Origin: Escherichia coli
GTDB lineage: Bacteria > Pseudomonadota > Gammaproteobacteria > Enterobacterales > Enterobacteriaceae
Direction: 5' to 3' (one strand)
Assembly: GCF_003334305.1 (NCBI RefSeq)
Contig: NZ_QOWS01000038.1
Length of the DNA stretch: 23,984 nt
Part shown: piece by piece, positions 23,582 through 23,984 of the stretch
Numbering within the stretch: position 1 is the first letter of the stretch
Layout: every line of letters begins with the position of its first letter
Position numbers and translations under genes: made by a program
The notes under the pieces: model-generated
The model's input: only the letters and a program-made list of their open reading frames with translations
The model's database searches: none
Told to the model about the DNA's origin: nothing

Positions 23582-23586
23582 CATCC

Positions 23587-23984
23587 TCCACGCCCTGAAG
23601 GACGTGGATCCCTGCTACGTTCAGGCTGTCGCCTGAATCATTTCGGTGGGTTCCTGCTTCAACGGGCGGCCTGACTGCACCATCTCTCCACAGGCAAGAA
23701 CGGCGTGCCCCGCCGCTAAAATGTTACGAGCGCCATTTACATCGGCGTTCGCTGTATATCCACATACCTGGCATCTGAATTTACTTTGTGACAGGCGGTT
23801 CTCTTTCGCTGTATGACCACAGTACGCGCAACGCTGGCTTGTATACGCTGGCGGAACAGCAAGCACCTGACCGCCACGCCAGAGCTGCTTGTACTCAAGC
23901 TGGCGGTGCATTTCATACCAGCCCTGATCCAGTATCGAACGGTTTAAACCTGATTTTGCCCGGACATTGCGCCCCGGCTGGCTG
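23587..23984 (-). mobile_element. IS200/IS605-family element (IS609-like), right-end portion only; continues beyond the window
   Basis: Contains the tnpB 3' part and two hairpins near its stop: TCCACG/CGTGGA at 23587-23608 and TTCAGGC/GCCTGAA at 23620-23637. The element boundary is not determined. Confidence 0.5.
23621..23984 (-). CDS. insQ: TnpB (OrfB) transposase-associated RNA-guided nuclease family protein, C-terminal part; gene start lies beyond the right edge
   Basis: Frame is open from the window edge to the stop at 23621-23623. It carries the TnpB C-terminal zinc-finger region (CAYCGH ... CQVCGY) and the upstream motif [24 protein letters not shown]. Confidence 0.85.

Follow-up and report, generated by a model that had tools for sequence, protein, structure and literature searches.

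The right end of an IS609-type element at the ydcO locus of Escherichia coli and its predicted TnpB guide-RNA scaffold

What kind of DNA separates the convergent genes ydcO and tnpB of Escherichia coli, and what are the two hairpins that lie there? The question arises at the end of a 23,984-nucleotide (nt) stretch of E. coli DNA (contig NZ_QOWS01000038.1 of assembly GCF_003334305.1; this whole stretch is called the window below), which covers the region rlhA(ydcP)–sutR(ydcN)–ydcO. An earlier reading of positions 23582–23984, made from the letters and their open reading frames (ORFs) and referred to here as the sequence-only reading, had placed the stop codon of an IS200/IS605-family tnpB gene in one hairpin (hairpin 1) and a second hairpin (hairpin 2) between that gene and ydcO, and had connected both with the transposase TnpA and, possibly, with a TnpB guide RNA. 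The analysis described here indicates that positions 23578–23984 are very probably the right end of an IS609-type insertion sequence (IS), with hairpin 2 in a dual role, as a DNA site and as an RNA stem, and with a guide-RNA scaffold.

The boundary of the element was obtained from the comparison of occupied and empty alleles. Window positions 23200–23984 were searched against 5426 complete E. coli genomes, and the same junction of ydcO with the tnpB gene, named insQ, was found in 3262 of them (about 60%), the uninterrupted empty site being detected with a junction probe in 2020 (about 37%). Copies of the element located elsewhere matched from query position 376–382 onward, and empty-site genomes matched only up to query position 378. 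The exact junction was read from an occupied allele, L001, which belongs to an E. coli strain 100% identical to the window over the junction stretch (window coordinate = L001 + 19199), and from the empty-site strain L002. With a slash marking each junction, the empty site is AACCGATA/ATAAAAAGCGCC and the occupied site is AACCGATA/TTGACATCC...CACCGG/ATAAAAAGCGCC, with an insert of 1743 bp and without target duplication. The right boundary of the element is window position 23578, and since the IS begins there, it includes the spacer and both hairpins as well as the stop codon of ydcO. The boundary, which the sequence-only reading had left unresolved within the window, is thus fixed 4 nt to the left of the segment first considered, inside the native ydcO stop codon. 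The comparison with strains lacking the insertion, which the sequence-only reading had proposed, yielded the empty site, and both hairpins are absent from it.

23578..23984, minus strand: right-end part of an IS200/IS605 element of the IS609 type, which is 1743–1748 bp long in full and runs beyond the window.
23578..23581, minus strand: right-end tip, TCAA/ in the tnpB sense, where TnpA is predicted to cleave, 10 nt 3' of the foot of the hairpin.

The consequences for ydcO could be specified in the same way. On the tnpB-sense strand the element terminates in ...GGATGTCAA/, and the reverse complement of its tip, TTGA on the plus strand, provides the ydcO stop. In the empty allele ydcO ends in ...AAC CGA TAA TAA, and the insertion point lies after the second base of the first stop codon (TA/A); in the window, according to the sequence and the ORF list, the gene ends in ...AAC CGA TAT TGA, where the element T at 23578 completes a Tyr codon and the new TGA stop (23579–23581) is also IS-derived. 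Because the insertion split the native TAA stop, YdcO gains one Tyr (391 amino acids (aa) in the occupied vs 390 aa in the empty allele). The terminator hairpin GCGCCATC-TAAC-GATGGCGC, located directly 3' of ydcO in the empty allele, is now 1.7 kb away at the left end of the element; its U-tract is found only on the ydcL strand, where the T-tract supplies TTAT. No terminator-like replacement was put behind ydcO by the insertion. The effect on the 3' end of ydcO, left undecided by the sequence-only reading, can be described in part: the stop codon and the terminal Tyr are IS-derived, and the terminator hairpin has been displaced.

A separate observation concerns the same junction in E. coli HH45 (L094, 100–142). 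All that is left of the IS right end there is a stretch of 21 nt (TTGACATCCTCCACGCCCTGG), after which come CT, 21 consecutive C and then the normal left flank ATAAAAAGCGCC. Probably either the assembly is at fault here or the element has suffered an internal deletion.

The ends of the element were then defined with the help of five further E. coli copies, located in the hslO/yhgE intergenic region, in a TetR gene (two strains), beside a group II intron and, as an 83%-identical copy, on a plasmid. In four of these five the TTGACATCC start stands beside unrelated flanks, the tip of the fifth (L006) being replaced by the group II intron. At the opposite end all five read ...CAC(C/T)GG followed by ATAA, which means TTAT 5' of the left end; TTAT adjoins the left end in all six E. 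coli copies and in most of the relatives found, and enterobacterial relatives (Morganella, Serratia) likewise show TTTAT. In the tnpB sense the layout is TTAT/CCGGTGCGCCGTAAAA-(hairpin)...(hairpin)-AGGATGTCAA/, and the 5'-TTAT adjoining the left end is likely to be the target of insertion and the transposon-associated motif (TAM). The left-end hairpin, CCCCGTCC-TTCA-GGGCGGGG (L001 6085–6105), and the right-end hairpin, CCACGTCC-TTCA-GGGCGTGG (L001 4388–4408), are direct repeats with 86% identity, an arrangement also present in the five other copies. Subterminal palindromes in direct orientation, no terminal inverted repeats, no target duplication and a fixed 5' target, by which the ends of IS200/IS605 elements are recognised, were all found here. 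The AGGAUGUCAA sequence at the right end is nearly invariant in 35 relatives, and the sequence beyond it is unrelated.

The same end organisation is known from IS608 (ISHp608) of Helicobacter pylori, with its direct-orientation subterminal palindromes, lack of terminal inverted repeats and of target duplication, insertion 3' of a tetranucleotide and a TCAA right end 10 nt past the hairpin foot. The target of IS608 is reportedly TTAC, unlike the TTAT of the E. coli element, and its tnpA and tnpB are co-directional, whereas those of the E. coli element are divergent. In IS608 the tetranucleotide 5' of each hairpin, AAAG at the left end, is said to read the cleavage site. The corresponding tetranucleotides of the E. 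coli element are AAAA at the left end and GGAT at the right end, and if the tetranucleotide reads the target, AAAA in place of AAAG fits the change from TTAC to TTAT.

In two of the elements the right end of the IS is interrupted by a group II intron (5' GTGCGCCCAGCATGGGCG...), which follows ...GGAGGATGT/ and sits 3 nt short of the tip: in L006 (about 2480–2500; E. coli MFDS1019527, with ltrA nearby) and in L068 (about 2745–2760; a metagenome-assembled genome of Alcaligenaceae). This insertion deletes the TCAA cleavage site and parts the guide-RNA scaffold from the guide. The same insertion point in two unrelated hosts suggests that the intron lineage homes to the conserved IS right end.

Both hairpins of the window are present as first described, with the tnpB stop codon inside a 7-bp stem at 23620–23637 and the other hairpin at 23587–23608. 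The positions of the two stop codons also hold, according to the sequence and the ORF list: the stop of the minus-strand tnpB (insQ) ORF is at 23623–23621, and the gap to the ydcO stop, given earlier as about 40 bp, is 39 nt. Those 39 nt are not a chromosomal spacer, since all DNA from 23578 onward belongs to the element. As single-stranded DNA, the 76-nt junction folds more stably than shuffled sequences on the minus strand (z = -3.1; 1 of 200 shuffles as good) and on the plus strand (z = -3.7; 0 of 200).

23587..23608, minus strand: hairpin 2, predicted subterminal imperfect palindrome of the right end (IP_RE) and last stem of the omega-RNA scaffold.
23617..23641 (core 23620–23637), minus strand: hairpin 1, predicted variable omega-RNA stem containing the tnpB stop, equivalent in position to stem 3 of ISDra2.

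On the minus strand hairpin 2 reads UCCACGUCC-UUCA-GGGCGUGGA, with 9 bp including one G.U (T.G in DNA) pair and the UUCA tetraloop at -22..-19, numbered back from the tip. Its left-end twin in direct orientation marks it as the TnpA-type subterminal hairpin, predicted to be recognised as single-stranded DNA. At the same time it is helix 9 of the RNA consensus derived below (9 pairs, 7 of them with compensatory changes, 96.6% of cells paired), and it aligns to the 3' hairpin of the Rfam family HgcC. In two strains, L089 (O111:H8) and L091 (CH427), an A-to-T substitution in the tnpB sense at window 23605 converts an A-U pair of this hairpin into a U.U mismatch.

Hairpin 1, with the core TTCAGGC-TGTC-GCCTGAA, has a 7-bp stem which, as minus-strand RNA, extends to 23617–23641 with a bulged A; no counterpart of it exists at the left end. 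It corresponds to consensus helices 6–8, and all 7 of its pairs show two-sided compensatory changes, its sequence and length being variable. The distance from the tnpB stop to the tip ranges from 45 to 157 nt across relatives, with the stem of hairpin 1 persisting, and because the stop moves in this way relative to the tip, the stems are not a by-product of the coding sequence. Judged by these comparisons, hairpin 1 is not a TnpA site but a guide-RNA stem, so the proposal that TnpA hairpins of the IS200/IS605 type lie at this junction stands for hairpin 2, with its left-end repeat, and has to be abandoned for hairpin 1.

Does the right end as a whole encode a structured RNA? A scan of 100,044 species genomes gave 80 loci encoding relatives with 57–94% identity, mostly from Gamma- and Betaproteobacteria. 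All complete relatives carry the module in the same order, namely CCUGUGGAG, a hairpin, GUGAAGCAGGAACCCACCGAAG, a variable hairpin, GUAGGAAUC, the end hairpin and AGGAUGUCAA/, and the sequence past the module is unrelated in all of them. A MAFFT alignment of 35 sequences, folded with RNAalifold, contained 37 pairs, 23 of which showed compensatory changes. The covariance model R1 built from this alignment gave 83 matches in relatives across Proteobacteria, always at the 3' end of tnpB, and conservation in these 83 stops exactly at the TCAA tip. In the 83-sequence alignment, which was fitted to the model and so leans towards structure, 95.3% of cells were paired vs 80.1% in shuffles, the covariation score was 0.389 vs 0.147 in shuffles (none of 500 reached it) with slid-partner controls at or below 0.114, and two-sided changes occurred in 25 of the 37 pairs; the independent MAFFT result agrees in direction. 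That the structure belongs to the tnpB-sense strand is indicated by its many G.U pairs. The suggestion that a conserved structured RNA overlaps the 3' end of tnpB was thereby borne out.

23578..23740, minus strand: whole conserved RNA module, match to covariance model R1 (174.9 bits, E = 5.9e-43), the only match in the window.
23611..23646, minus strand: closing helix of CC (23646–23645) with GG (23612–23611), enclosing hairpin 1 and equivalent in position to stem 2 of ISDra2 (3' strand at -35/-34).
23653..23694, minus strand: 5' core-scaffold module, with the outer stem CCUGU/GCAGG (-117..-113 with -80..-76) and an inner hairpin, resembling RAGATH-18.
23701..23715, minus strand: upstream covarying hairpin CGGCG-GGGCA-CGCCG (helix 2), inside the tnpB coding sequence (CDS).

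The 5' module comprises helices 3 and 4, and all six pairs of helix 4 have compensatory changes. The closing helix is helix 5, which is 99.4% paired with one-sided changes only. Helix 2 (98.3% paired, compensatory changes in 4 of 5 pairs) may be a 5' extension of the omega-RNA precursor; its role is uncertain because ISDra2 can do without the equivalent 5' region of its omega-RNA (PMC10097598). A possible alternative pseudoknot partner at -104..-102 conflicts with the well-supported helix 4.

The module could also be related to RNA families already described. The whole window was scanned with Rfam at gathering thresholds and then permissively, and the permissive scan returned sub-threshold matches on the tnpB-sense strand only: HgcC (22.2 bits, gathering score 50), RAGATH-18 (25.4 and 44.9, at exactly 23653..23694) and sot0042 (17 and 88). 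All three families are tied to the 3' ends of tnpB genes (PMC4615843; PMC11061315). The archaeal families HgcC (RF00062) and sot0042 (RF02656) share with the E. coli module the position at the tnpB 3' end and a UUNA-loop hairpin on the 3' side, after which comes GGAGGAnGUCA, and over the last 60 nt the alignment to HgcC is nearly complete, base by base; the scores, however, are far below gathering, the 5' portions are not alike and the two families occur in archaea, so the module falls outside both families. RAGATH-18 (RF03064), from which the right-end element RNA (reRNA) of IS607 TnpBs derives (PMC11061315), is matched by CCUGUGGAG...GAUGAAGCAGGAA at both stem strands of its consensus, but with 25.4 bits against the gathering score of 44.9 and with an internal part of 17 nt in E. 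coli vs 44 nt in the model. In contrast to the E. coli RNA, the IS607 reRNA lies wholly outside the tnpB CDS and is associated with the TAM AGGAG or GAGGG (PMC11061315), and the E. coli element family has a Y1 TnpA, not a serine recombinase.

A close likeness exists to the TnpB–omega-RNA of ISDra2 from Deinococcus radiodurans (PDB 8BF8/8EXA/8H1J), in which a full-length homologue with the RuvC D-E-D triad and a zinc finger works with an RNA that covers the 3' end of tnpB and reaches to the right-end tip, with a guide supplied by the flanking DNA. The ISDra2 omega-RNA has a 116-nt core scaffold (start at -116) with stems 1–4, a tetraloop at -20..-17, and a pseudoknot directly 5' of the guide whose partner is at -105..-103 (PMC10097598). 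The E. coli scaffold similarly starts at -117 and has its tetraloop at -22..-19, with hairpin 1 at the place of stem 3 and hairpin 2 at that of stem 4. The two systems differ in the target (TTAT in E. coli vs TTGAT in ISDra2), in the divergent orientation of tnpA and tnpB in E. coli and in the first stem, which encloses an extra covarying hairpin in E. coli. By this likeness and by covariation, the module would be the TnpB omega-RNA or reRNA, putatively transcribed, processed and bound by InsQ at this locus, and the RNA may be processed from the tnpB mRNA. RNA-seq of E. coli K-12 is reported to have detected a sense transcript that overlaps the 3' end of tnpB (PMC4615843), and a genome search found that K-12 has only the ydcO-site copy of the element.

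The protein partner is well identified. The full insQ gene (L001 4422–5630) encodes 402 aa, and the product aligns to ISDra2 TnpB (8BF8/8EXA/8H1J) with E = 2.6e-55 over residues 3–372, a match called full length. In the alignment, D183, E267 and D363 fall on the motifs GVDVG, TEHL and RDEN of ISDra2, respectively, and the zinc finger is retained (CAYC at 334, CQVC at 353). The Pfam domains HTH_OrfB_IS605 (PF12323), OrfB_IS605 (PF01385) and TNB (PF07282) were found, the NCBIfam model guided_TnpB (NF040570) scored 378.6 bits against a cut-off of 100, and RefSeq labels the locus insQ, "RNA-guided endonuclease InsQ/TnpB family protein". The original assignment of the gene to IS200/IS605-family tnpB is supported by all of these lines and by the IS609-family annotation of the sister tnpA genes. 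InsQ is predicted to be an active nuclease with TTAT as its TAM.

23621..23984, minus strand: 3' part of tnpB/insQ, residues 283–402 and the stop codon, including the zinc finger and the third RuvC Asp (D363).

The tnpA gene of the ydcO locus lies outside the window, diverges from insQ and is a pseudogene; sister copies of the element (97–98% identical) encode an intact 143-aa TnpA (NF033573 at 146 bits), annotated by NCBI as IS609 family. The start codons of insQ (GTG) and tnpA are 7 nt apart (L001 5630–5638), so that the promoter of each gene must lie in the other; a promoter scan found no sigma-70-like site around these divergent starts.

If the module is a guide RNA, the guide can be specified.

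23558..23577, minus strand: predicted omega-RNA guide 5'-UAUCGGUUUCUGUCAGCGAU, chromosomal DNA that directly adjoins the right end on its 3' side and is antisense to the final codons of ydcO.

Its length is taken from ISDra2, in which 16 nt are used (PMC10097598). The flank at the guide position differs in every other copy of the element, and on the tnpB-sense strand of the empty allele TTAT is followed by TATCGGTTTCTGTCAGCGAT, an exact match to the guide 20-mer. According to the mechanism that we propose, the element would have integrated without duplication 3' of a TTAT to which the two consecutive ydcO stop codons and the T-tract of the terminator of ydcL both contribute. As single-stranded DNA in the tnpB sense (window minus strand), hairpin 2 would be bound by the Y1 transposase TnpA and cut 10 nt downstream at TCAA/; as RNA, the same hairpin would form the last stem of the TnpB guide-RNA scaffold, with hairpin 1 as another scaffold stem that overlaps the tnpB stop by chance. 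The scaffold core would span approximately 23694–23578, and 16–20 nt of the flank (from 23577 downward) would become the guide; since the scaffold ends exactly at the tip of the element, the transcript should continue into the flank, which would make this flank the guide. InsQ with this RNA would, following the established TnpB model, cut copies of the locus that lack the element (TTAT + TATCGGTTTCTGTCAGCGAT), and repair of the break from an occupied copy would lead to retention of the element. The occupied locus would be spared because the target there is preceded by ...GTCAA, not by TTAT.

Self-targeting through a 12-nt exact direct repeat, AGAAACCGATAT (window 23567–23578, and L001 5661–5672 at the 5' end of tnpA), was considered and rejected: about 0.1 such repeats are expected by chance and no TTAT adjoins the internal copy. 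The repeat is probably a coincidence.

The evidence given above can be set against other explanations of the hairpins. That they are ordinary chromosomal terminators for the convergent ydcO and tnpB might be thought from their location between two convergent stop codons, from their stable folding and from the separation of ydcO from its native terminator hairpin, now 1.7 kb off. Both hairpins are, however, absent from the 2020 empty-site genomes, and wherever the element occurs at unrelated loci or in other species they accompany it. They are also not terminator-like: no U-tract follows either of them on either strand, and the terminator scan misses both yet picks the native ydcL terminator. 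With covariation spanning a 160-nt multi-helix module in addition, this explanation is extremely improbable. It is also very unlikely, if somewhat less so, that the hairpins are merely TnpA sites at the DNA level or by-products of coding constraint, with no functional guide RNA. The left-end twin of hairpin 2 accords with such a view, as do the overlap of much of the module with tnpB codons, the invariance of the last 10 nt, as expected of a cleavage site, and the lack of a detected promoter. But the left end has one hairpin only, with no counterpart of hairpin 1 or of CCUGU...GCAGG, and hairpin 1 and helix 4 pair through two-sided changes in positions that are coding in some relatives and non-coding in others. 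The layout also matches the experimentally solved ISDra2 omega-RNA (PMC10097598), and for E. coli K-12 there is the report of a sense transcript from the 3' end of tnpB (PMC4615843).

Several results weigh against the interpretation of the region as an IS609-type right end with a working guide-RNA scaffold. No Rfam family reached its gathering score anywhere in the window. The pseudoknot candidate predicted by RNAalifold between 23734–23732 and 23582–23580 (-157..-155 with -5..-3) has no two-sided changes, its 3' strand being invariant. Promoter scans found no sigma-70-like promoter on the minus strand near the module. The literature searched for insQ, IS609 and TnpB yielded no functional study of E. 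coli InsQ, either of nuclease activity or of its TAM; 'IS609' TnpB is named among the purified candidates in one paper, in passages that give no activity result for it. The U.U mismatch in hairpin 2 is present in two of the seven ydcO-site copies that were compared (L001 and L088–L093, from diverse strains). Finally, with tnpA dead and the left end mutated, the element at ydcO looks immobile, and a retention function would then have nothing to act on unless TnpA were supplied in trans.

These last points lead to the question of whether the ydcO copy is a decaying relic, in which RNA and InsQ may still be produced but are inactive and without effect. In all seven copies tnpA is a pseudogene, with stops and indels that differ between strains, and all seven share a G-to-A change in the left-end hairpin that breaks one pair (CCCCATCC vs CCCCGTCC in copies with intact tnpA). 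The shared change together with the differing tnpA lesions suggests that the element was immobilised long ago. The mismatch in hairpin 2 and the position of the E. coli sequence as the single A-C outlier at one helix-4 pair also accord with decay. On the other hand, insQ has remained intact, with 402 aa and no indels in all seven copies despite dS (synonymous divergence) of up to 0.05. Its pairwise ratio of non-synonymous to synonymous divergence (dN/dS) is 0.18–0.38 (about 0.25), and its variable codons comprise 17 synonymous and 16 non-synonymous ones (binomial p = 2e-4 vs neutrality based on site counts; p = 0.008 vs a more generous expectation), figures that come from a small sample of seven genomes in which gene conversion is possible. 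None of the 16 non-synonymous polymorphisms affects a catalytic or zinc-binding residue, all of which are kept, and the RNA module varies at only 2 of 163 positions. A mere relic is therefore rather unlikely. The one slightly puzzling feature of the locus is that an immobile copy has kept its nuclease gene intact.

One could go further and suppose that the ydcO-linked insQ and the guide-RNA module are maintained as a chromosomal module, more than as a transposon accessory, an idea that we regard as speculative and improbable. Its grounds are that an immobile element, carried at this single site by about 60% of complete E. coli genomes, still has an intact insQ under purifying selection (dN/dS about 0.25 in the seven copies) and a nearly invariant RNA module. 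If it were true, the module could act in allele drive, by cutting an empty ydcO–ydcL allele (TTAT + the 20-nt match) that enters by recombination or horizontal transfer. Alternatively, a host role could be imagined, for example antisense or convergent-transcription control of ydcO, which is proposed because the element displaced the ydcO terminator hairpin and the guide complements the last ydcO codons.

As to significance, the element type (IS609) and the RNA class (omega-RNA/reRNA, or sense overlapping transcript RNA, sotRNA) are already known and the locus is annotated; the arrangement is the textbook one for TnpB and omega-RNA and offers nothing conceptually new. What has been added are details of annotation, namely the IS609 right end at 23578, the transposon-derived C-terminal Tyr and TGA of ydcO and the loss of the ydcO terminator hairpin, and a prediction made from sequence of a TTAT TAM and a defined guide/target pair for the native TnpB of E. 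coli K-12 type, in a tractable host.

The neighbouring gene that received the insertion is annotated as follows.

22406..23581, plus strand: CDS of ydcO (BenE-family transporter), from the RefSeq annotation of the 100%-identical locus L001.

Upstream of the annotated ATG (22406) its ORF continues for another 87 codons, to a GTG at 22145, and the gene start is annotated inconsistently, with an intermediate start that makes the gene 13 codons longer in the RefSeq records for L089 and L090.

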